Shown: piece by piece, positions 7,822 through 34,150 of the stretch
How the letters are laid out: each line of letters starts with the position of its first letter
Numbering within the stretch: the stretch's first letter is position 1
From: Candidatus Obscuribacterales bacterium
Lineage (GTDB): Bacteria > Cyanobacteriota > Vampirovibrionia > Obscuribacterales > Obscuribacteraceae
Direction of reading: 5' to 3'
Assembly (NCBI GenBank): GCA_965228855.1
Contig: CBDDIJ010000003.1
Span: forward strand, 1,568,001 to 1,632,000
Length of the DNA stretch: 64,000 nucleotides
Made by a program: the position numbers and the translations under genes
Notes under the pieces: generated by a model
What the model saw: the letters and a program-made list of their open reading frames with translations, nothing else
What the model was told of the DNA's origin: nothing
The model's database searches: none

Positions 7822-8105
7822 GGCTAACTTCCTTCTCTAAGCGGCGACTGGCTCGGAACAGTCCAATTCGGCCCGCGAATGCAAGAGCGCACGCGAGTCC
7901 GACGGCTTCGCCATCGACTTCCCTTTACCGAAGGTTTCCAATGCTAGTATCCCACAAAATGACCGCTAATACAACTTCTAAGCTAGCGGTCCTGTCGTTC
8001 CCGCTCCGCATGCCTTTACGACTACAGCTGGTTCGTAGGACTCGGAATTTCATCCATCCTGCACTTTGTACAGCAGCGGTGACCGGCACTAATGGTGGTA
8101 CCAGT

Positions 8106-9752
8106 TCAAAGCTGTGACTTAATCTCAGTATTAAGCCGATTATAAATCGAACTTCCAGGATTCAGCATCATGACGCCCTCTTCCTCACGTCCTCCATACA
8201 CCATGCCAACAAGAAATCCTCGTTCATCTAAAACTGGAGAGCCGCTTAACGCTCCCAATCTGATTGCCCTGTCCATCTTAATGACGATATGACCCGGTGC
8301 GGTGGTCTTCACAGTCGCGGTAAACGGATGAACTTTTCTGTCACCACCGACTAATGAAGTAGCGGCCGCGCGCTCGTTCGTGAATAGAAAAACGGGCGTA
8401 CCAACAGCAGGAACACTCTCGCGTAGTTTAAGCGGTTGAAGTTTGCATTTTGCTGAAGCCTTCAGTGCAAGCAAATCACCGCGCAAATCACCCGAATTTG
8501 ACCTGGAAAGGTCGCCCGACAGAAGAAGGGGCTTGGTTCCGATTCCGAGCAATTTCCCAGTTTTGAAATCGCGAATCTCAACTCTTACCAACTGAGACTG
8601 ACAGTCTTGCGCAGTGAGCTGTCTAAGGAAACCGGTTGACGGTCCAACCAGATGCAGGGGTGTAACGAAAACGGACTTGCCAGTCTTCAAATAAACGCTA
8701 AATATCTTTCCACCAGTGAACTTTTGTCCGTCCTTAAGGTAGAACGTTGGCTCTCCCACGGCGTTCCCGACGTCTGGAGCAATAATATTCGAACTTGCTT
8801 TTCTTGCAGACCTAGAGTGACTAGGTTCTGCAATTGGCTTGGCAGCTGCAGATCCACAGTTAGTAAGAACGGACGCGAAGACCAAAATCGCGGCTAGAGC
8901 GCTCAGCAAATACTTGGGACCTGGCTGTTCAATAGCCCGCGCGGCAACCGCAACACCCGCGCGAGCCGCGTCAACAAATCCAACTCCGCCACTGAGCCTG
9001 GCTAAAACGCTACCACAAAATGTATCGCCGGCCCCTGTAGGGTCTAATTCTTCCGCGTGAACAGCTAACACCGTTTCAGTAGATTCTGGCTGGTAAACTT
9101 TTACTCCGTTTTCTCCATCAGTCACAAAGCAAGCACCATGCTGGTTTACGAATGCTTTGGGAACATCAGAGTTGTTTCCAAACAAAAGATCGGCCTCATT
9201 TCGATTCATAAAGAAGACGTCGCAGTCACGTATCAACTGCTCTACGCCAGCTTTGTCGGATGAAATTGCACGCGCATAGGTTCCTGCAGAGATTTTGTAA
9301 AACCCTTGCGCGCCATCACCAGCGGTTTCACTAAAAAACTTGCAGAAGTCATTCTGCTTTTGAACCGAACTGAGCGCAGCAATGTGCACAATGTCAAAAT
9401 CAAAGTCTCTGACTTCCGGCAGGCAATCAGGAACCAATAAATCTTCGGCGCCCCAATCTGCGGAAACAAGCGTTGCTCGCCCACCGCCGTGATGAACTAT
9501 CTCCAGCCTGGGCATTTCTTCGATAGCGCAATGAGGACCGAGCCAGGTTAGCTTTGCTTCAATGGTCCGGAGCTTTTCAGGCATCGGATCCGGTCTCGGA
9601 GCATAAAGAACAACGTCAGCTCCCTGATGCACGGCCGCCAGAGCAGTGTACAGCCCAGCACCACCCACGGTTTCAAAACTGTCGACACGACCATCCCGCT
9701 CTAATCGCAAGATATCGAATGAAACGCAACCGACTACCAGAATACTTCCCAT
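8106..9752 (-). CDS. PfkB family carbohydrate kinase fused to a C-terminal trypsin-like serine protease domain
   Basis: GGAGLYTA, NRNEA, VTDGENG, DPTGAGDTFCG (PfkB); then a hydrophobic segment and TPLHLV / DLLAL / GALSGSPVLD (His-Asp-Ser triad). ATG at 9752 preceded by GGTGGAG. Confidence 0.8.
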   Translation of the reverse strand: MGSILVVGCVSFDILRLERDGRVDSFETVGGAGLYTALAAVHQGADVVLYAPRPDPMPEKLRTIEAKLTWLGPHCAIEEMPRLEIVHHGGGRATLVSADWGAEDLLVPDCLPEVRDFDFDIVHIAALSSVQKQNDFCKFFSETAGDGAQGFYKISAGTYARAISSDKAGVEQLIRDCDVFFMNRNEADLLFGNNSDVPKAFVNQHGACFVTDGENGVKVYQPESTETVLAVHAEELDPTGAGDTFCGSVLARLSGGVGFVDAARAGVAVAARAIEQPGPKYLLSALAAILVFASVLTNCGSAAAKPIAEPSHSRSARKASSNIIAPDVGNAVGEPTFYLKDGQKFTGGKIFSVYLKTGKSVFVTPLHLVGPSTGFLRQLTAQDCQSQLVRVEIRDFKTGKLLGIGTKPLLLSGDLSRSNSGDLRGDLLALKASAKCKLQPLKLRESVPAVGTPVFLFTNERAAATSLVGGDRKVHPFTATVKTTAPGHIVIKMDRAIRLGALSGSPVLDERGFLVGMVYGGREEEGVMMLNPGSSIYNRLNTEIKSQL

Positions 9753-24699: not shown

Positions 24700-25287
24700 C
24701 TATTCGTTAATGAAATATCGCTTTGTAGTCGGATTGCGGCCAAGGTTTTCCCAGTTTCGAGACGCGCTGAGGAGAAACGGTACGGGGCTTGTGATTCCCG
24801 GTATCGTCAAACCGCCGGAAGCAGGAGACAAAATGGCCGGCGAAATCAGAGCCTGCACCTCAAGATCGAGATTGTAGATGCAAGGAGATTTCTCAACATC
24901 GGGCAGCCATGCTGTCGGAATTTGGCCAGGCTTCTCGACCACCAGAACTTCGATAGGATGAGCATTAAGAAAAACGCGAGAAGCTCGCATTTTGAGTTTA
25001 AGCTTAGTGCACTTAACTCCACCAAGTCGCTCAAGCCGCGTGGCAAGCGACGGGTCTGCTTCTAATATGTCATGCGCCTGGCTATATGTCTCGCAAAGCG
25101 CCAATTTGCGTACGTAACCGTTCACTATTTCCTGAGCGAGCAGCCAACGGACCGGCAAAATCGCAAAGTCGAGAAATGGCAAAAGTATCACAAGGACTAG
25201 CATGACTATGGCTGCGGTAAACTCAGCCAATTGGCTACCTCGCGTTGAGCGACGCAGATGATTTTCGAATTTTCGAGAACGACGCAT
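24700..25287 (-). CDS. TadE-like Flp pilus pseudopilin
   Basis: Basic leader then RG|SQLAEF plus hydrophobic helix (class III signal, Glu at +5). Confidence 0.7.
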   Translation of the reverse strand: MRRSRKFENHLRRSTRGSQLAEFTAAIVMLVLVILLPFLDFAILPVRWLLAQEIVNGYVRKLALCETYSQAHDILEADPSLATRLERLGGVKCTKLKLKMRASRVFLNAHPIEVLVVEKPGQIPTAWLPDVEKSPCIYNLDLEVQALISPAILSPASGGLTIPGITSPVPFLLSASRNWENLGRNPTTKRYFINE

Positions 25288-25342
25288 TGGTAAAACGCTT
25301 TTCGTGCGATACTTTGGAAGCCCGACTTACGGATAAAGTACC

Positions 25343-26242
25343 ATGAAACGCCAGCGCCAATCGAGCGGCAAGATGCTGATTCTCATCGCGCTGGTTATCG
25401 TCTTAATCACATTCATTTTTCTCATCGGTATCGTGTTCGTGACTCTTCTGTCCCAGCACACCCGGTCTCAGTACAACGTCGATGCATTCGCTCTAAATCT
25501 TGCGAAGATATTGAACGACCACGATCGCGTCGGTCAAATGAATCAAGTTCTGGCACGTAACCGCGAGCTCATTTACACAACACGCCAGGATTATATTGGC
25601 TGCGAAGAACAGGGATTAAGCCATCTTGCTCCGCTCTGCGACCAGCTAATCAATGAAGCTTACGAAAGTCACGAATTAATCGAGAGCGAGCAACTTCATC
25701 AAATCGATGCTGTGTCGAAGGAGCTTGTGAAAGCAACGAGAGCATACAACAACAATCGCAACGGGAGCAGCATCTCGATCTTTCCCTGGCTGAAAACATT
25801 TGAGCCTGAAATTACCCGAGTGGACGTGGGATGTATCAAAAATGTTCAGTCGAACGTACGCGAATCGACAGTCGTCGAGCAACTTTTCGAACATGACAAA
25901 AAGCAAGGGTATTTGGAACCGAAGAGCGGCCTTTTTCGCGCAAACATAAACGCTAAATTGCCGGTGCCGGATGAACAACTGAAATTTAAATTCTCTGCGC
26001 TGCCCGCGTTCGTTGAAAACACTTGCGCACCACCGAGAGTGGCAAATCTCGAGATGTTCGAGCAATATCCGATCGTGATTCGCGACAAGAATTCCGGTTC
26101 GAAACCAAACGATCGATTACCATACGCAGTCAAGCTCTATACAACCATGGACGTGGCGCTGGATGCTGAAAAACTGGATCGGCACGAAATTACGGTTAAC
26201 TCCGTTGGTGTCGCTGGCGGTGCCATCTCCGACTACGAGTAG
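25343..26242 (+). CDS. TadG/Tad-like pilus-associated protein
   Basis: Basic leader RQRQSSG followed by a long hydrophobic helix, then Q..VDAFAL..A (TadG-like Q.A.DAAALA). Confidence 0.6.
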   Translation: MKRQRQSSGKMLILIALVIVLITFIFLIGIVFVTLLSQHTRSQYNVDAFALNLAKILNDHDRVGQMNQVLARNRELIYTTRQDYIGCEEQGLSHLAPLCDQLINEAYESHELIESEQLHQIDAVSKELVKATRAYNNNRNGSSISIFPWLKTFEPEITRVDVGCIKNVQSNVRESTVVEQLFEHDKKQGYLEPKSGLFRANINAKLPVPDEQLKFKFSALPAFVENTCAPPRVANLEMFEQYPIVIRDKNSGSKPNDRLPYAVKLYTTMDVALDAEKLDRHEITVNSVGVAGGAISDYE

Positions 26243-26248
26243 CAGACG

Positions 26249-27844
26249 CTAGAGTTCAAAAGCCTTCAGCTGTTGAGCGACCTGGAGCGTGTGAATCTGT
26301 TTACCACCGGTTGCTTTTTTCACTTCTTCATTCAAAGCAACAAATCCGCTGTCGCTGGTTGGATCATCCGCACAAAGAAGCGACATCGGCACGTGCGTCA
26401 ACTGCACCACATCCTCCGGCGGGATACCCTTTACACGCGACTTCCCATAGGTTTGATCGACGTAAACTTTATTGATTTTCGTTCCGGGCGCCTTCACGAT
26501 GTTCCACTCGACTTGAGCGTGCGAGGAAAGAACTAGAATGCTGTTTGGAAACTTGGGTGTCAACTTGACTGTTACGTGCCCCATGATGTTAGGGTTATTG
26601 TCCTCACTTCTTGGCGTATCATGCGCCTGACCGAGATAAATAGCTTGCACGGCGGGATTCGAAATATAGTTCTTATTCACCCAGGTTGTCGGGGCATTGT
26701 CGTCGCCATTGTAGATGTAACCAGGTTGCCGCCCGTCCATCAGCAGCTGAATACTCTCCGAATTAGACATACCGACTGCGCCCACCACACCAAGGAGGAG
26801 AACGGAAATACCGGCGATAATCAAAGGCTTCTTGCTCTTGGACGGTGTGGACGAACTCGAATCGATTTTGGCAATTGGTTTTCCACTTTGAGTTCTGTAC
26901 GCAGCTGCATCCACCAAACAGTCGAGTGTTTTAGCACCAACTGAGGTAAAAGCGGCTACTTTCAATTCTTCAGCTGTTTGCCAGCGCTCGTCTGGATTTT
27001 TGCGCATCGCCTTTAGTATCACTTGTTCGAGCGCCGCCGGAATTCCAGCTGACGGTGCAATTTCGTTCATCGGTTCAGGTTCGTTGTGAACGTGAGCATA
27101 CATCATCTGTAAAGCGTTCTGAGCTCTAAACGGCGTTCTCCCCGTCAAGGTTTCATACATCAAACATCCAAGCGAATAAATATCGGTTCGATGATCGATC
27201 GGTCCCGCCTGGCACTGTTCGGGACTCATATAGTACGGGCTGCCGATTGTTTCATGAGCTGCGGTCAGCTGTGGTGCGTTTTTCTCAAGCGACTTGGCTA
27301 TACCAAAGTCGACGATTTTAGCCAATTCTATACCATCATCATTTTCTATCATGATGTTGGACGGTTTCAAATCGCGGTGTGCAACACCTTTCTTATGAGC
27401 GTGGCTCAGTGCATCACAAATTTGCGCAAAGATTCGCACCGCGCGTCGCGGCTCCAGCATTCCCTCTCGCGCGATCAAATCCGCCAGAGTCAAACCTTCG
27501 AGCAGGTCCATAATCAGATAAGGAGTGCCGTCTTCAAGTCGTCCAAAGTCAAAGACCGGGCAAACATTCGTGTGGCTCAGGCTAGCAGCTAGAGTCGCCT
27601 CTTGCTTGAACCTCGCGAAGATATCCTCGCTAACTCGAAAATCGGGGTGTAAAACTTTGATTGCGACTTTACGCCCGATTTCCACGTGCTCAGCCGCGAA
27701 AAGAGCGCCCATCCCGCCAGTGCCGACCAGCTTCTGGATCTGATAGCGCCCAATGGTCGTGCCAATATGCGTAACGTAAGCGCCCGAAGTCCCACCGCCA
27801 GCGGGCATCGGTGTGGTTTTATCGAAACTCTGGTCCTGCGTCAT
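26249..27844 (-). CDS. Hanks-type Ser/Thr protein kinase with TM helix and extracytoplasmic domain
   Basis: GTGGMG, VAIKVL, HRDLKPSN, DFGIAK, GSPYYMSPEQ, DIYSLG; TM LIIAGISVLLLGVVGAVG. Confidence 0.96.
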   Translation of the reverse strand: MTQDQSFDKTTPMPAGGGTSGAYVTHIGTTIGRYQIQKLVGTGGMGALFAAEHVEIGRKVAIKVLHPDFRVSEDIFARFKQEATLAASLSHTNVCPVFDFGRLEDGTPYLIMDLLEGLTLADLIAREGMLEPRRAVRIFAQICDALSHAHKKGVAHRDLKPSNIMIENDDGIELAKIVDFGIAKSLEKNAPQLTAAHETIGSPYYMSPEQCQAGPIDHRTDIYSLGCLMYETLTGRTPFRAQNALQMMYAHVHNEPEPMNEIAPSAGIPAALEQVILKAMRKNPDERWQTAEELKVAAFTSVGAKTLDCLVDAAAYRTQSGKPIAKIDSSSSTPSKSKKPLIIAGISVLLLGVVGAVGMSNSESIQLLMDGRQPGYIYNGDDNAPTTWVNKNYISNPAVQAIYLGQAHDTPRSEDNNPNIMGHVTVKLTPKFPNSILVLSSHAQVEWNIVKAPGTKINKVYVDQTYGKSRVKGIPPEDVVQLTHVPMSLLCADDPTSDSGFVALNEEVKKATGGKQIHTLQVAQQLKAFEL

Positions 27845-27947
27845 GCGTTCTCCTCACAAACATTATGAACGAGAAACCAATCTTGAGCGCCACTTGATAT
27901 CATTTAATGATTAGATATTGCGAGGCTCTGCGAAACATCGGAGATGT

Positions 27948-30170
27948 TCAGGTCATAATCTTTTGCCAGCGCCGAAACAAATCGCTGCGCTTCAGGAACT
28001 CCAGATGCATGTCTACAAGCATCGCACGGTCTTCTGAAGTGATAACGGGAAACTCACTAATGGAATCTGTTAGAGCCCGATCAATTGCATGCGGGCAAAG
28101 TCGATATTCTTCGACAAATAAAGTATGCATGAAGCGCCTTAACTCATCCGTCTTTCGGCTATCCCCCACACCATTACCGTCGAACGCGAAGCTTTCCCTC
28201 GAAAGGCTGGAAAGGTGTTCCTCTATCGCGTCCTTCAGTTCGGAACTACCTTTATCGAATGAAAGTATTTCGAGAACCTCGCGATACGGTTTAGCAGCTT
28301 CGTAATCGGAATCGTACATTCGCCTTACAACCGGCAACACAGTCAATCGCTGTTTACTTTCCTCGATGCACTCTAGAAGTGTTTTTTGCATGCGTTTAAA
28401 CCGAACATCACTTAAAGCAGCCACCAGCGATTCAGCATCCGATTTGCTGGCAACGAATAAAAGTTCCCTCAGCTTTTGCATGTCGTTTTGATGCAAGGAG
28501 TCTTCGAGGAACTCAAGCGCAAGAGTCTTAATGCGCCTTCTAAACACGGATGAATAGCCCTCGAGATTTTCGAATTGTTTATCGACTTCAACTGCTAGTT
28601 TGGCGAAATCTCTGACAGCACGCGAGTCGTCATGCTGCGCACGTTGCAAGACCGGACGAAACCAGGGGAAGCCAGAGATAAAACATAAGCGTAAACCGAG
28701 AAGCAGATGATGCGGCTTCGCCGAGTCTATCAGCCGTTTATGGTCATTCGTAGCTCTGCCCAAATCGGTCGGTTCAAATGAATTTGCATAAGTAGAAAGT
28801 ATGGGATGTGACTTAAGATCTGCAGTTGCGATAACGCTCTCGTTCTCCACGCCGGCACTTGAATCCAGTTCAATTTCGGTCAAGTTTTCCACGGCAGGCT
28901 CATCCTGCCAACGTCCGGAGCGCGCCTCGCGATAGAAACTCCAGAGATTGCGAATGTAATAAGAGTCCAACCCGGTGATTATAAACAGTACCACCGCCCC
29001 TAATACCAACAGTACGACAATAAAATCCTGGAGGTGTAATTGCTCCTTCAGCGCTGCCATCGCACCGCTAGTGATCATGGTGGCACAGGAAGTAAAAATG
29101 CAAATGAGGGACACAATTGTGCCTCGCTGGCTGCGAGGCACCGGAACGAGACACTGCCTTGTCACCGGCAATTGAACGCTCCTATTTATAACGTTATAGG
29201 TTACGAGCAAAATCACGACAGGCCAGAGCGGCGGAAGAATCAGAGCAATTCCCGAAAATAGCAAGATGTTCAGCGGTTGAAACGCAAATAAAGTGCTAAG
29301 CTGAAGCCGCCTGGTTAAGCGCCGTCCGACAAGATTTTGCATTGCAAGCGAACAAAAGATTGCAACCATTGTAGTAGAGCTGACAAATATCGCGATCCGT
29401 CGGGCAGAAGGTAAGCTGAGGTCCGCAGCTTGATAGAAAACGTACTCGATGACGAACTTCGTAACTTGTGACCAGATCATGATAATCATTGCGATTCGAA
29501 CCATATCATTGGCGAAGATGAATTTGAGTCCCTTCTGCAAACGATCCAAAACATTTGATTCATCGCTCTTAATGCCCGCTTTGGCTTCGACTCCATGCAG
29601 TCGAGAAACAGTAACATTGAACAGGGCGAAGTGAACCATCAGGCAGACCCAACCCAGCGGATACCAGTAGCCGAGCCAATGGTTGGCACTGAGAATCCAG
29701 ATAATTCCGGACGCCGTAATGCGCGCTATCAAGTCGGCAGAAATGATTTTTGCGTAAACTTCACGAAAAATAGCTGGATTTACCGACAGCTGAAGAATAA
29801 CCGGACCCAACGTGGTTCCTATCAAGTCAACCACTACCGTTGAAATTGCAAAAAGATACAGCAGCAAGTGGTTGTAGAGCACCATATGTGGTGAGTGCTG
29901 CTCAAGGAAGCACAGGATCGAAGCTACGAGTGTGAGCCCGATGAAGAGCTTGTAGACGCCATAGCCCTTCTTGTCTCCGAGTAGGGCGAAGTACAAGTAA
30001 AATACAACCGATGCGATACTGGCGAAGAAAAACAGCTGAGAGTAATTCTTTCCACCCACGGCTTTAACGAAAACACTGTTCACGAATATCAAACACATAC
30101 TGGTGAACATGCTTCGACAGAAAGCGCTGAATGCATGCGTTTTAAAAGTTGTCGCCTTAACCGCGTTCAT
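27948..30170 (-). CDS. MFS/NTT (Npt1/TLC-like) transporter with long C-terminal alpha-helical (HEAT-like) domain
   Basis: About 12 hydrophobic segments in the first ~400 aa (FVNSVFVKAVG, VIEYVFY, RQCLVPVPRSQRG), then ~330 aa soluble helical tail. Confidence 0.65.
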   Translation of the reverse strand: MNAVKATTFKTHAFSAFCRSMFTSMCLIFVNSVFVKAVGGKNYSQLFFFASIASVVFYLYFALLGDKKGYGVYKLFIGLTLVASILCFLEQHSPHMVLYNHLLLYLFAISTVVVDLIGTTLGPVILQLSVNPAIFREVYAKIISADLIARITASGIIWILSANHWLGYWYPLGWVCLMVHFALFNVTVSRLHGVEAKAGIKSDESNVLDRLQKGLKFIFANDMVRIAMIIMIWSQVTKFVIEYVFYQAADLSLPSARRIAIFVSSTTMVAIFCSLAMQNLVGRRLTRRLQLSTLFAFQPLNILLFSGIALILPPLWPVVILLVTYNVINRSVQLPVTRQCLVPVPRSQRGTIVSLICIFTSCATMITSGAMAALKEQLHLQDFIVVLLVLGAVVLFIITGLDSYYIRNLWSFYREARSGRWQDEPAVENLTEIELDSSAGVENESVIATADLKSHPILSTYANSFEPTDLGRATNDHKRLIDSAKPHHLLLGLRLCFISGFPWFRPVLQRAQHDDSRAVRDFAKLAVEVDKQFENLEGYSSVFRRRIKTLALEFLEDSLHQNDMQKLRELLFVASKSDAESLVAALSDVRFKRMQKTLLECIEESKQRLTVLPVVRRMYDSDYEAAKPYREVLEILSFDKGSSELKDAIEEHLSSLSRESFAFDGNGVGDSRKTDELRRFMHTLFVEEYRLCPHAIDRALTDSISEFPVITSEDRAMLVDMHLEFLKRSDLFRRWQKIMT

Positions 30171-31372
30171 GACTTATCTATGGTGTTATCGTCACCCGAC
30201 TCCGGGCGGGACTCGAGTTCATTGGGCTCCAGCGTCTCCGTTTGCCAGAGATTTCCAAGATACTCACTCTTTTGAATTTTCTCGGCAAGAGCATTAATGG
30301 TCTTCGACAAATATCCAATTTCATCTTCGCCTGCGTAGGTGACTCGCGCGGAGAAATTACCGTTGTTAATTTGATTGACGGCATCTGCGACCTGCCGAAA
30401 GGGCTTGGCTAGCCGGTCTCCCACCACAATCGATGCCACCAGACTCAGGACCAGACCCAGCACCAACGCAACGAGAAGACGATATGTAAGTTCTTTGTTT
30501 TTCGCTTCGATGCGATGAGTATTGACGCCAAGAGTAACGACCAGTTTCAATTCATCAATCGGTAGCGAAATTACAATGTACTGACTTGGACCAAGATCTT
30601 CGTGATAATCGACAAAGGCGTTGCCGTCAATCTTGCTGTTTGGTCCATAGAAGTGCCTGGTCGCATGATCAGTATGCTCCCTAATTGCACTGTTGGCGTC
30701 CTTTTCGTTGATACCATCGCTGGTGAGAAAGTGTCCGTTGCTATCGGTGATAAGAATGAAATTATCCTGTCCAAGCTGCAATCCATGCAGCAAATGCTCA
30801 ATCTTTTGGAGTCGCGGAAAAACTGCGCCGCTAAGAACTCCGAAAATTTGAGTCTTTTCCCGGTCGGAAAATACAGGCGATACGTAGGTCTGATAGAGTG
30901 TTCCGTTAGGTGAGAAGAACACTTCCGAGGCACGCGATTTCTTTTCCTTGAGAACTCGGTCGGCTAACTCGATGAACGCTTTGTTCTTTCTTCGAAAGTT
31001 CGTCTTCGGTGTGTATGGTCCCATAGTGGAGCGGCGCTCGGCGAACACCAGCTCCCCATCAGCTCTATACATGTGGACCGTGTTGTAAATGTTGGGAAAG
31101 GCGAGAAATTCCTTGAGCGTGCTTTGCGCCTGTTTAGGTTCAAACGGTAAAAATCCCGGCATTTTGGTGACGTCGTCTAGCGCTTCCAAATCAGCACCGT
31201 AATTGGCTTTGACGTTGTTTATGATGAACGCGAGAGACGTCGTTGAGTCTGCCACTACAAACTGACGGATCGCCTCGTTAGTCAAGTAGTAAGCGACTGC
31301 CGAGACCACACCAAAGAAAATGATAATGATCACGAATAGTCGAATGAAGATAATGCTTTGAATCGACCGCAA
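30167..31372 (-). CDS. Cache (dCache_1-like) + HAMP membrane sensor lacking an output domain
   Basis: TM1, extracytoplasmic Cache-like region (YVSPVF..GVLSGAV; FILITDSNGHFL), TM2, HAMP (PFRQVADAVNQINNGNFSARV..GEDEIGYLSKTINAL), then stop after ~35 aa. Confidence 0.85.
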   Translation of the reverse strand: MRSIQSIIFIRLFVIIIIFFGVVSAVAYYLTNEAIRQFVVADSTTSLAFIINNVKANYGADLEALDDVTKMPGFLPFEPKQAQSTLKEFLAFPNIYNTVHMYRADGELVFAERRSTMGPYTPKTNFRRKNKAFIELADRVLKEKKSRASEVFFSPNGTLYQTYVSPVFSDREKTQIFGVLSGAVFPRLQKIEHLLHGLQLGQDNFILITDSNGHFLTSDGINEKDANSAIREHTDHATRHFYGPNSKIDGNAFVDYHEDLGPSQYIVISLPIDELKLVVTLGVNTHRIEAKNKELTYRLLVALVLGLVLSLVASIVVGDRLAKPFRQVADAVNQINNGNFSARVTYAGEDEIGYLSKTINALAEKIQKSEYLGNLWQTETLEPNELESRPESGDDNTIDKS

Positions 31373-31528
31373 TGGAAAAATCCTTAGCGTGGTCCGCCTA
31401 AAAAACTTCTGGATTCCGTAGATAGCTTACGCCATAGGCCCTTATTCCACATTTATGGAGCTTACGCACGGCTGCCGGCGGGTATAGAACAAGTGGGAAA
31501 CTCCCCGTAACTTCTGAGGAGCGTAGAA

Positions 31529-34150
31529 GTGAGAGTTAAGAACATTGTCGTCGCAGCGACATTTTTATTAGCCTGTTCACTCAACTTTGCAGAGCAGGCG
31601 CAGGCCGGTTCTGATGATTATGAAAAGGAGTTGTCGCGCGGACAGCGTCAGATCGTGAAGAAGGACTTCGAAGCAGCAGTCGCGTCTTTCACTGAGGTCT
31701 TGAGGCAAAATCCGAATGTGTACGAGGCCTACTTGCTAAGAGCTCAGGCGCGTGTAGCCATTAAAGACATGGATGGGGCGCTCTCCGACTACGATCAAGC
31801 AATCAAAGTCAATCCCAACGTCGTCGAGTCCTACATCAAACGCGGAGATCTACAGAGCAGTCAAGGCAATCAGCAAGCGGCGATTGATGACTACACGCAA
31901 GCTTTGCGATTGAACCCGAAAAATGGTTCTGCACATATGAAACGTGCTGAGGCCTACAAGCAAAACGGCGATTTTCTCAAAGCCGCCGATGACTATTCAT
32001 CGTTCTTGAAGTTTGATAAGAATTCAATGGAAGCTCGCGAAGCTCGAGGCGAATGCCGTTTGAGAGCATACGATTATGATGGAGCCCTCGACGATTTCAA
32101 CTTTCTTCTCAAGAAGTTTAAAACGAAATCGTTTTCAATTCACTATAATCTCGGCGAACTGTATGCAGCAAAGGGCGATATGAATGCAGCAAAAGAGCAT
32201 TTCAACGAAGTTATCGCCTATTATTCGAAAAACCTGAATAAGTCAAAGAAAGCAGGTTGGGACTATATTCGCAGGGGACGTGCCTATTATCACTTGGGCG
32301 AAACAGACAAAGCCATGAGTGATATCGAATCTGGTGCTGCCATGCTACCCGATGATCCGACAGCGCAATACGAACTTGGTCATGCGCGTTTACTAAAGGG
32401 TGATGCGGAGGGCGCGATCAAACCATTGGACGTAGCCATCAAAGCGAATCCGCGTTTGTTCGCAGCGTACGTGGACAGAGGTTCCGCGAACATAGCGCTT
32501 GGACAGTTTTTAGCTGCCAAGAAAGACCTCGACACTGCTCTGGCTAACGAGAAGAGCACAGGAGGTTATCTTTATCGTGCGATGGCTCGTGTCGCATACG
32601 GCGATGCGGTTGGTGCTTACAACGATGTGATCGAGGCAAAGAAGCTAAATCCAAAAGCCCTCGAGGTCAAGCAGAAGGAAATATCTGCTGCGTTGGCGGC
32701 AAAAGAAAAGGCTAACGACAAAGATCCTGCAGTAGCACAGATTCTGGAGCAGCTGGCATTGATCGACCTGGCAAACAACAATGTCGACAGCGCCGAGGCA
32801 TCTGTGAAGAAAGCAATTAGCATTCAGGAAAAATCACTAGGACAATCAGATCCAAAAATAGCATACAGTTTACTGCTGCTCGGAAAAGTCTATCTGCAAA
32901 AGCAGCAGCTTCCGCGCGCTGAGGCTTTGTTTAGAACAGCGATGATTCGTTTGCGCACCAATCCTGATGGCACTCAGAAATATGCCGTATTCAGCCTGGA
33001 GGATTGCGCACGCGTTTTAATTCAATCCGCTAAGCAGGAAGATGCCGGTGCGATTCTCAGCGATACGCGGATGGCTCGAGCAGTTTCCGGTCTGACAGAA
33101 GGAGCGTTCACGGGTGATCTGGCTCGGCGTGCGGAGTCAGCAATCGACGCTTACAAGCAAAAGAAAAAGTTCGACCGGCAAGAAGAGCTTGTGCGCAAGG
33201 CTGCAGTAACTCCAAGAAGCGAGCCGGACGAAGAGGAATCGTCGCCTCAAGAAGAGAGAAAACGAACCCATAACCGACCAATCCGGGACAAATGGGCTGT
33301 TATTGTCGGTATAGGTCAGTTCAAGGACCCTAACATAAACCTGAAATTTGCATCTAAGGACGCAAAGGATTTTGCCAATTTCCTCGTTAAGGACAAGGGC
33401 TTTGCGCCGGATCACGTTCAACTTTTGACGGATCAGCAAGCAACCCGAGCTAACATATTGTCTCTTCTCGGTAGCAAATGGCTTCCGCGCGTCGCCGAAC
33501 CTGATGATCTCGTAGTGATTTATTTCAGCAGCCACGGAAGCCCGTCGAGTCTGGATGTGGGTGGCGTCAATTACCTGGTCGCGCACGACACTGACCCGAA
33601 TGACCTTTACGCGACTGGAATCGCCATGCAGGATCTGGCGCGCATTATCAAAGCTCGAGTACACAGCGATCGAATTATGCTGGTTCTCGATGCCTGCCAC
33701 AGCGGCAGCGTGGCTCCCAGTGCCAAAGGAATTGGTCGCGAGGCGAATATCAATGTCGATGCGATCGTGCAGGGCACAGGTCAGCTGGTGCTATCGTCCA
33801 GCAGCCCGGAGCAGCGCTCATGGGAGTCAAAAAGATATGACGGCAGCGTGTTCACAAAATACTTGATCGAAGGTCTGAAGTTGAATGGCAAGATGACCAC
33901 ACTTGGCGACGCGTTCACTTATCTGGATCAGGAAACAAAACGTGAGGTCTTAAGAGATCGCGGAGTTCTCCAGAGTCCGATCATGAAAAGCAAGTGGGAA
34001 GGCAAAGATCTAATTCTTGGAGTAACTCCGAGCGCACCATCACGAGGAGTCAGTGATTTCGAATTACCGGACTCAGTAAGACTATCTACAGGCACCGATG
34101 ATGGTGCATCGAAATCAGTAAAACCGAAGGCTCCAGCGAGGAAACATTGA
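31529..34150 (+). CDS. Secreted TPR repeat protein with C-terminal caspase-like (C14) peptidase
   Basis: Signal peptide; over 10 TPRs; KWAVIVGIGQF, YFSSHGS (His), LDACHSG (Cys), SVFTKYLIEGL. Confidence 0.9.
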   Translation: MRVKNIVVAATFLLACSLNFAEQAQAGSDDYEKELSRGQRQIVKKDFEAAVASFTEVLRQNPNVYEAYLLRAQARVAIKDMDGALSDYDQAIKVNPNVVESYIKRGDLQSSQGNQQAAIDDYTQALRLNPKNGSAHMKRAEAYKQNGDFLKAADDYSSFLKFDKNSMEAREARGECRLRAYDYDGALDDFNFLLKKFKTKSFSIHYNLGELYAAKGDMNAAKEHFNEVIAYYSKNLNKSKKAGWDYIRRGRAYYHLGETDKAMSDIESGAAMLPDDPTAQYELGHARLLKGDAEGAIKPLDVAIKANPRLFAAYVDRGSANIALGQFLAAKKDLDTALANEKSTGGYLYRAMARVAYGDAVGAYNDVIEAKKLNPKALEVKQKEISAALAAKEKANDKDPAVAQILEQLALIDLANNNVDSAEASVKKAISIQEKSLGQSDPKIAYSLLLLGKVYLQKQQLPRAEALFRTAMIRLRTNPDGTQKYAVFSLEDCARVLIQSAKQEDAGAILSDTRMARAVSGLTEGAFTGDLARRAESAIDAYKQKKKFDRQEELVRKAAVTPRSEPDEEESSPQEERKRTHNRPIRDKWAVIVGIGQFKDPNINLKFASKDAKDFANFLVKDKGFAPDHVQLLTDQQATRANILSLLGSKWLPRVAEPDDLVVIYFSSHGSPSSLDVGGVNYLVAHDTDPNDLYATGIAMQDLARIIKARVHSDRIMLVLDACHSGSVAPSAKGIGREANINVDAIVQGTGQLVLSSSSPEQRSWESKRYDGSVFTKYLIEGLKLNGKMTTLGDAFTYLDQETKREVLRDRGVLQSPIMKSKWEGKDLILGVTPSAPSRGVSDFELPDSVRLSTGTDDGASKSVKPKAPARKH

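Follow-up and report, generated by a model that had tools for sequence, protein, structure and literature searches.

An output-less Cache-HAMP receptor gene and a divergent NTT-HEAT carrier gene form a conserved two-gene unit in Obscuribacterales

Background

HAMP domains drive enzymes or chemoreceptor tips, and where a transporter and a receptor act as one unit, as in BceAB-BceS, UhpC-UhpB and CbrA, the transporter informs a kinase that has its own output. To our knowledge, no function has been assigned to the widespread NTT-HEAT proteins. Here, we describe a gene for a Cache-HAMP receptor that lacks an output domain and the overlapping gene for a divergent NTT-HEAT protein (hereafter, the carrier), both located in a 64,000-nucleotide stretch of a Candidatus Obscuribacterales genome (GenBank assembly GCA_965228855.1, contig CBDDIJ010000003.1, positions 1,568,001 to 1,632,000), which is referred to below as the window. 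An earlier reading of the sequence (the original prediction) had proposed that these two genes, followed by a transmembrane Ser/Thr kinase gene, encode a receptor-controlled transport system.

Several described systems come close to this arrangement. NTT-HEAT proteins and NTT-HEAT-cNBD proteins, the latter with a cyclic nucleotide monophosphate (cNMP)-binding domain, were described, with their function untested, by Major, Embley and Williams 2017 (PMC5381601), and the available part of that paper does not mention HAMP, Cache, a receptor or a sensor. The carrier shares with these proteins the NTT-like 12-helix domain and a C-terminal HEAT region, with a profile match over the full length. According to the accessible text on the Af1503-like archaeal receptors (PMC4834066), HAMP is their sole cytosolic domain, as it is in the receptor of the window, their operons are enriched in transporters, and they have been proposed to regulate solute transport. 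The CHH receptor (Cache_heme-HAMP), as far as the available text of its description goes, is output-less and binds in trans the helical modules of a Ser/Thr kinase encoded in the same operon; the word transporter is absent from the portion of the main text at hand (10.64898/2026.05.25.727664). Both CHH and the window's protein are output-less Cache-HAMP receptors, and CHH is a precedent for an output-less HAMP receptor that binds an operon partner in trans.

Results

The receptor and the carrier are inherited as one unit. Among 104 genomes of the family, a full receptor was found in 13 and a full carrier in the same 13, with the receptor gene directly upstream of the carrier gene in every case; the two genes overlap in 11 of these genomes and are separated by a 58-nt gap in the other two (in G003, the carrier is spread over two contigs). 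The co-conservation of the pair, on which the original prediction depended, thus holds for 13/13 receptor-bearing genomes and extends to a second phylum. The receptor and carrier trees, of which the former is a quick version and the latter was built with care, contain the same clades, with a long branch for G521, a genome labelled Riflebacteria. In G004 (93% complete), no receptor match was detected and a carrier remnant occupies the syntenic place (L078:1336-1824); in G005, a 40-residue remnant (L111, about 8001-8123) is all that is left of the second carrier copy described below. No third gene was found to be conserved beside the pair in the 13 genomes by screens of open reading frames (ORFs) of at least 130-150 aa, so that genes of 60-90 aa fall outside this result. 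A screen of 400 additional genomes from the same phylum did not recover the pair and yielded one distant NTT-like gene only; one locus was recovered from metagenome contigs, and there was no match to the carrier in plasmids or to the receptor in viral contigs.

The receptor gene is whole and belongs to a genuine output-less family. Its product consists of a transmembrane segment (residues ~9-30), a double-Cache sensor (~31-292), a second transmembrane segment (~293-318), a HAMP domain (319-367), a conserved terminal helix and a variable acidic tail. This agrees with the transmembrane-Cache-transmembrane-HAMP layout read at the outset: two transmembrane segments are predicted by hydropathy, and Pfam detects HAMP (320-367, E-value 1e-9, above the cut-off) and dCache_1 (102-279, E-value 5e-6, below the cut-off) and no output domain. 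The best Foldseek matches of the predicted model are the dCache sensor domains of Mlp24, PctA/B and KinD (E-values 1e-10 to 1e-7). A search of 220-702-aa proteins returned 50 true relatives (48-97% identity), in which only HAMP or dCache_1 was annotated and 18 of which carry an indirect hint of linkage with a carrier match; no relative with an output domain was found, given that proteins of 838-2390 aa match via HAMP only, at 11-13% coverage (proteins of 703-837 aa lie outside the search).

The end of the receptor is a constant feature of the family. In an alignment of the query with 46 relatives (n = 47; one near-identical copy and three fragments were omitted), a tryptophan stands exactly 16 residues past the HAMP asparagine in all 47 sequences and is followed in each by an unconserved tail of 10-100 residues that is rich in E, S, A and D. 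Residues 365-379 form the most conserved segment of the protein (mean 0.89, vs 0.17 in the tail and 0.63-0.77 in the other segments), and the canonical HAMP is retained, with D350-E351-I352-G353 and N360 invariant. The tryptophan occupies the same position in 24/24 distant (Riflebacteria) receptors, with 5-20 residues after it. Truncation had been a concern; all 47 proteins end soon after the same helix, and none runs into an output domain. A frameshift at 30150-30300, which the original prediction had also raised, was not borne out, chiefly because the stop is conserved in relatives; two Logan contigs match 27700-31500 with 0 differences and 0 gaps, which is weaker evidence because the contigs possibly are this DNA's own source. 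A GTG or TTG start is found at the same place in 12 of the 13 other pair loci, as is the TTG start here.

The carrier is a divergent NTT-HEAT protein with a shortened HEAT region. A 12-helix MFS/NTT-like membrane part (residues ~7-399) precedes a shortened, HEAT-derived cytoplasmic region (~449-740); the predicted model contains 6+6 membrane helices within the first 399 residues, an amphipathic helix (401-418), a disordered linker and an all-helical tail. Hydropathy gives 12 transmembrane segments, in line with the transporter of about 12 such segments and a helical tail that had been proposed. Although the carrier has no Pfam or NCBIfam match of its own, TLC and HEAT included, its anticipated NTT/TLC-HEAT identity was confirmed by an MFS fold, by NTT1 as the best sequence match in PDB and by homology of the tail to HEAT proteins. 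Fold searches with residues 1-418 return MFS carriers, with NTT1 at Foldseek ranks 3 and 4, and AtNTT1 is the first PDB sequence match of the carrier-family profile (E-value 5e-7); with a widened profile, canonical NTT1 reaches an E-value of 1e-28 vs 1e-7 for the next MFS protein, at 16% identity or lower. Among the matches listed from the ESM Atlas, 10/10 clusters score 0.95-0.97 and 8/10 carry TLC, TLC/HEAT clusters being represented, and proteins of the MFS/TLC-HEAT(-cNBD) type make up the weaker matches in a representative library. A further ~35 full-length relatives are more distant. Profile-profile comparison with 18 Riflebacteria NTT-HEAT proteins of the HEAT_2-positive type aligned residues 14-711 over 690 columns (probability 100, E-value 1e-40), and the HEAT region of the carrier is ~100 residues shorter than those of these relatives. 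Pfam HEAT is only weakly detectable, in 3 of 58 carrier-family members; the PDB profile matches of the tail are alphaRep HEAT proteins (E-value 5e-4), and a cNMP-binding domain was found neither in the carrier nor in the 58 family members.

Several polar or charged membrane residues of the carrier are conserved, namely D115, R150, H180, Q247 and Q339 in 58/58 members and K238, E242, R330 and R338 in 55-57/58. In AtNTT1, K155, E245, E385 and K527 are needed for ATP/ADP transport, according to the available text of the study (PMC4256464). By eye, in a profile alignment with one offset of 84, E245 and E385 correspond to D115 and E242 of the carrier, and K155 and K527 to F47 and about T364. Because both required lysines are replaced, the substrate is probably not ATP/ADP, and classical ATP/ADP exchange by the carrier appears unlikely. 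The same genome encodes a second carrier copy (G000:C5:1166496-1168772; L018:6973-9300), which is 46% identical, has no adjoining receptor and could use the receptor in trans, as well as a stand-alone, tail-less 447-aa TLC/NTT-like gene (G000:C3:589131-590489; L178:6150-7490).

The receptor-carrier unit predates the window's family and is present in two phyla. G521 holds the same pair (37% and 32% identity, 14-nt gap), and 2 of 3 further paralogues in this genome have an output-less dCache-HAMP gene directly upstream. Among 87 Riflebacteria genomes, 63 match the carrier profile and one has a pair of the window's subfamily. At the best 24 Riflebacteria NTT-HEAT loci, chosen by likeness to the window's carrier, an output-less dCache-HAMP gene lies directly upstream in 21, the contig ends in one and no such gene is present in two; because the loci were picked in this way, the 21/24 share is not valid for NTT-HEAT genes generally. 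A cNMP-binding domain was found in 0/22 receptor-paired vs 2/13 unpaired NTT-HEAT proteins scanned, a small and related sample. Immediately after the pair, 5 of 9 widened Riflebacteria loci (L170, L171, L173, L174 and L176) have a gene for a PhnD-like periplasmic binding protein, a hint of a phosphorylated or anionic ligand.

The motifs known for amino-acid, purine and heme sensing are missing from the receptor. Neither YxxxxRxWY, the motif of the dCache_1AA amino-acid sensors, nor the heme motif CXXCH is present in any of the 47 close or 24 distant receptors. The purine-sensor (dCache_1PU) motif, which in McpH comprises Y121, R129, W140, F167 and D169 (PMC11245519), was not recognized either: the receptor Cache domain has no Trp, and the invariant S181-G182 stands, as placed by eye, where Asp is expected. 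The invariant or near-invariant Cache residues R114, K129, Y102, Y120 and Q161 would fit an anionic ligand, and the pocket varies between receptor subfamilies.

A shared NLW motif had been offered as a possible link between the two proteins, with the caveat that it might be due to chance, and the caveat proved right. EYLGNLW of the receptor (30245-30265) and YYIRNLW of the carrier (28941-28961) yield a best gapless 8-mer score of 30, which is reached by 52 of 412 genome ORFs of similar length and by 32 of 300 shuffles; moreover, the Riflebacteria receptors keep the Trp, and their HEAT partners have no NLW. Mimicry or homology was accordingly rejected, the likeness being at chance level. The pattern Y[IL]xNLW, chosen post hoc, is found in only 3 of the 5010 long ORFs of the genome. 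Each motif is conserved within its own family; in that of the carrier, Tyr and Leu are shared by NTT-HEAT proteins at large, and NLW is peculiar to the subfamily.

Features of the locus are listed in Table 1. The three ORFs, the ATGA overlap, the gap of 103 nt between the carrier gene and the kinase gene downstream on the same strand, and both motifs were all found in the sequence where they had been reported. A promoter and terminator scan of the locus gave counts below the shuffled expectation.

Table 1. Features of the receptor-carrier locus and the adjacent kinase gene (window coordinates)
Feature	Position	Strand	Basis
Output-less receptor gene, 401 aa, TTG start	30167..31372	-	ORF call and Pfam, hydropathy, predicted model, family alignment
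Divergent NTT-HEAT protein gene (carrier), 740 aa	27948..30170	-	ORF call, predicted model, profile comparisons
Transmembrane Ser/Thr kinase gene, 531 aa; genus-level neighbour outside the conserved unit	26249..27844	-	ORF call, Pfam, synteny
Overlap of the receptor stop and the carrier start (ATGA)	30167..30170	-	sequence
Conserved post-HAMP helix of the receptor, KIQKSEYLGNLW, residues 365-376, likely docking element	30245..30280	-	family alignments
Amphipathic helix of the carrier after transmembrane helix 12, LDSYYIRNLW...GxW, residues 401-421	28908..28970	-	alignments, model

The kinase has a Pfam Pkinase domain at residues 34-293, one transmembrane segment by hydropathy, and a 171-aa outer domain (window 26249-26764) that belongs to no Pfam or NCBIfam family. 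On the other side of the pair, divergent from the receptor gene, a gene at window 31529-34150 encodes a TPR protein with a caspase-like Peptidase_C14 domain and is syntenic across the genus. Window 24700-26242 contains two divergent genes, each with one N-terminal hydrophobic stretch and no Pfam match, which by eye resemble TadE/TadG-like pilus accessory genes.

Related loci elsewhere vary in composition. In G521, a gene that resembles those of Zn-dependent alcohol/sugar dehydrogenases and whose product begins with a hydrophobic stretch (L144:6643-7992) lies 10 nt upstream of the receptor gene. In the cyanobacterium G140 (L112:8283-10935), 1 nt separates a tail-less NTT-like gene from the following gene for a different output-less HAMP receptor, whose sequence closes with IEID..K..V.EI..TDFF, and MinD-like and KamA-like radical-SAM genes (named by eye) are found downstream; this locus is a second, independent coupling of an NTT-like gene to an output-less receptor. 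In cyanobacterial G145 (L134:952-7200), genes for two HAMP proteins that have extended C-terminal portions stand ahead of an NTT-HEAT gene.

Discussion

The proposed receptor-controlled transport module stands in part: the output-less receptor family, the strict co-conservation of the pair and the NTT/TLC-HEAT identity of the carrier were upheld, and the membership of the kinase and the NLW link were not. We give roughly even chances to a mechanism in which the receptor docks its terminal helix on the cytoplasmic side of the carrier and thereby switches the uptake of a small metabolite, probably an anion but not ATP/ADP. A ligand would bind the Cache domain, the signal would flow from receptor to carrier through the HAMP receptor's terminal helix (residues 365-376), which would touch the carrier physically, and the docked helix would gate a presumed transport activity. 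Direct control of this kind is inferred because the sole signalling element of the receptor is a short conserved helix and its sole conserved neighbour is a carrier with a helical platform. In its favour stand the joint inheritance and adjacency of the pair in two phyla, the strong conservation of the terminal helix beside a Cache pocket that varies, the polar and charged membrane residues kept by the carrier, the 0/22 count of cNMP-binding domains among receptor-paired proteins, the PhnD-like genes in Riflebacteria and the CHH precedent. More tentatively, and at somewhat under even chances, the pair may exemplify an undescribed class of two-protein, ligand-gated carriers, in which a stand-alone Cache-HAMP receptor switches an MFS/NTT carrier in trans via its terminal helix, replacing the regulatory role of the cNMP-binding domain of other NTT-HEAT proteins, in at least two phyla and with differing ligand pockets.

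Several observations weigh against this mechanism. The evidence for coupling is entirely genomic, and because the genomes are related, the co-occurrence counts overstate their independence. Five genomes, this one included, have an extra carrier copy without an adjoining receptor, although, in favour of the unit, such copies are confined to pair-keeping genomes; they cluster with a clade that in other genera has the receptor alongside. Such a receptor was found at 0 of 12 cyanobacterial TLC loci, and these loci together with the five unpaired paralogues indicate that NTT-HEAT proteins can function without such a receptor. In the genomes screened from the window's own family, the pair has neither a PhnD-like gene nor an enzyme gene as a conserved neighbour. 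The terminal helix itself may be an inherited remnant of a histidine-kinase helix and not a new docking motif, because the position of the Trp is shared by 6 of 30 single-HAMP controls, each of which is histidine-kinase-like with a W..DTSH stretch, and by 0 of 121 poly-HAMP repeats. Finally, the available text of PMC5381601 reports no demonstrated transport for any NTT-HEAT protein, and the carrier could be a non-transporting scaffold because the equivalents of K155 and K527 are absent.

This last point leads to the main rival to carrier gating, namely that the pair is one receptor complex in which the NTT-HEAT protein acts as a transceptor or scaffold, with the HEAT-derived tail contacting a cytoplasmic partner and little or no transport taking place. 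We regard this as possible, if unlikely. Two of the four charged residues that AtNTT1 needs for transport are lost in the carrier (PMC4256464, available text), several residues, among them H682, H722, K727 and W735, are invariant in the tail, and NTT-HEAT proteins elsewhere are fused to, or encoded before, cNMP-binding domains (PMC5381601, available text). However, no gene for a cytoplasmic partner is conserved near the pair in the 13 genomes, and conservation is higher in the membrane domain (0.67-0.71), which keeps its buried charges, than in the tail (0.50-0.60).

It is quite unlikely that the receptor is a membrane-anchored capture protein that passes its ligand to the carrier on the outside, with HAMP and the terminal helix merely holding the complex together. 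The lack of an output domain, the strict coupling to the carrier and the minimal cytoplasmic part would all suit such a protein, but the HAMP domain is canonical, with its invariant DEIG stretch and asparagine, and the separate PhnD-like binding protein that follows the pair in five Riflebacteria loci would be redundant.

The two genes might also be co-expressed without contact between their products, in which case the receptor would serve other HAMP kinases as a decoy or as a partner in heterodimers, and control of the carrier would be transcriptional only. The terminal helix indeed resembles the start of a BaeS-like kinase helix, and NCBIfam partial matches stop at about residue 370. This explanation is nevertheless improbable, given that neither a kinase nor a response regulator is a conserved neighbour of the pair and that adjacency is maintained across two phyla and several subfamilies.

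Signalling to the downstream Ser/Thr kinase, or phosphorylation of the receptor by it, is a very improbable alternative. The proximity of the kinase gene on the same strand and the precedent of CHH and its kinase (10.64898/2026.05.25.727664, available text) speak for it, and the kinase is adjacent to the pair in four more genomes of the genus. Yet this makes only 5 of 13 pair-bearing genomes, all from one genus, in which unrelated neighbours (TPR-caspase and WD40 genes) are as syntenic as the kinase; in G003, the kinase lies two genes away. The outer domain of the kinase was detected in 7/13 pair-bearing genomes, not in the other 6/13, and also in 3 genomes without the pair (10/104 in total). 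Furthermore, the window's kinase is transmembrane and has its own outer domain, whereas the CHH kinase, in the accessible description, is cytoplasmic and has helical recognition modules. The kinase is therefore ruled out as a core member of the unit, contrary to the original prediction.

That the receptor gene is a truncated or frameshifted sensor gene, as might be supposed from the 29/30 single-HAMP controls that extend at least 158 residues further, has a negligible probability: the end shared by receptors of both phyla refutes it, and the relatives annotated with HAMP or Cache only and the exactly matching contigs also speak against it.

Conclusions

The pair differs from each of the systems to which it is closest. 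The best PDB sequence matches of the carrier are the canonical ATP/ADP translocases (AtNTT1 and Chlamydia NTT1; Pfam TLC), with which it shares two acidic residues; unlike them, it lacks both lysines, has a large cytoplasmic tail and gives no direct TLC match. Compared with the described NTT-HEAT proteins, its HEAT region is shorter and below Pfam detection, and a receptor gene lies upstream; the NTT-HEAT-cNBD proteins differ in that the carrier has no fused or adjacent cNBD, the next gene being a kinase or variable. The Af1503-like receptors are archaeal and, in the available text, are associated with a small STAC protein and an SLC41/MgtE transporter, whereas here a bacterial dCache receptor is paired directly with an MFS/NTT-HEAT gene. 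The window's receptors differ from CHH in having no CXXCH and a conserved partner that is carrier-like and not a kinase.

We found no demonstration that a secondary carrier is controlled by a separate HAMP receptor, although this has been proposed for Af1503 in the accessible text of PMC4834066, and no publication on the pairing of a receptor with an NTT-HEAT protein in a search that reached few subscription journals and none of the supplementary files of the papers cited here. The receptor-carrier pair is thus a real, conserved two-gene unit that is apparently unpublished, represented here by a subfamily with a shrunken HEAT region, and the mechanism put forward for it is inferred. In BceAB-BceS, UhpC-UhpB and CbrA, information passes from the transporter to a kinase, but the receptor of the window has no output, so that information would have to pass the other way, to the carrier. 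As a minimal two-gene unit with a 12-residue candidate interface, the pair makes the control of a carrier by HAMP and the function of NTT-HEAT proteins experimentally accessible together.

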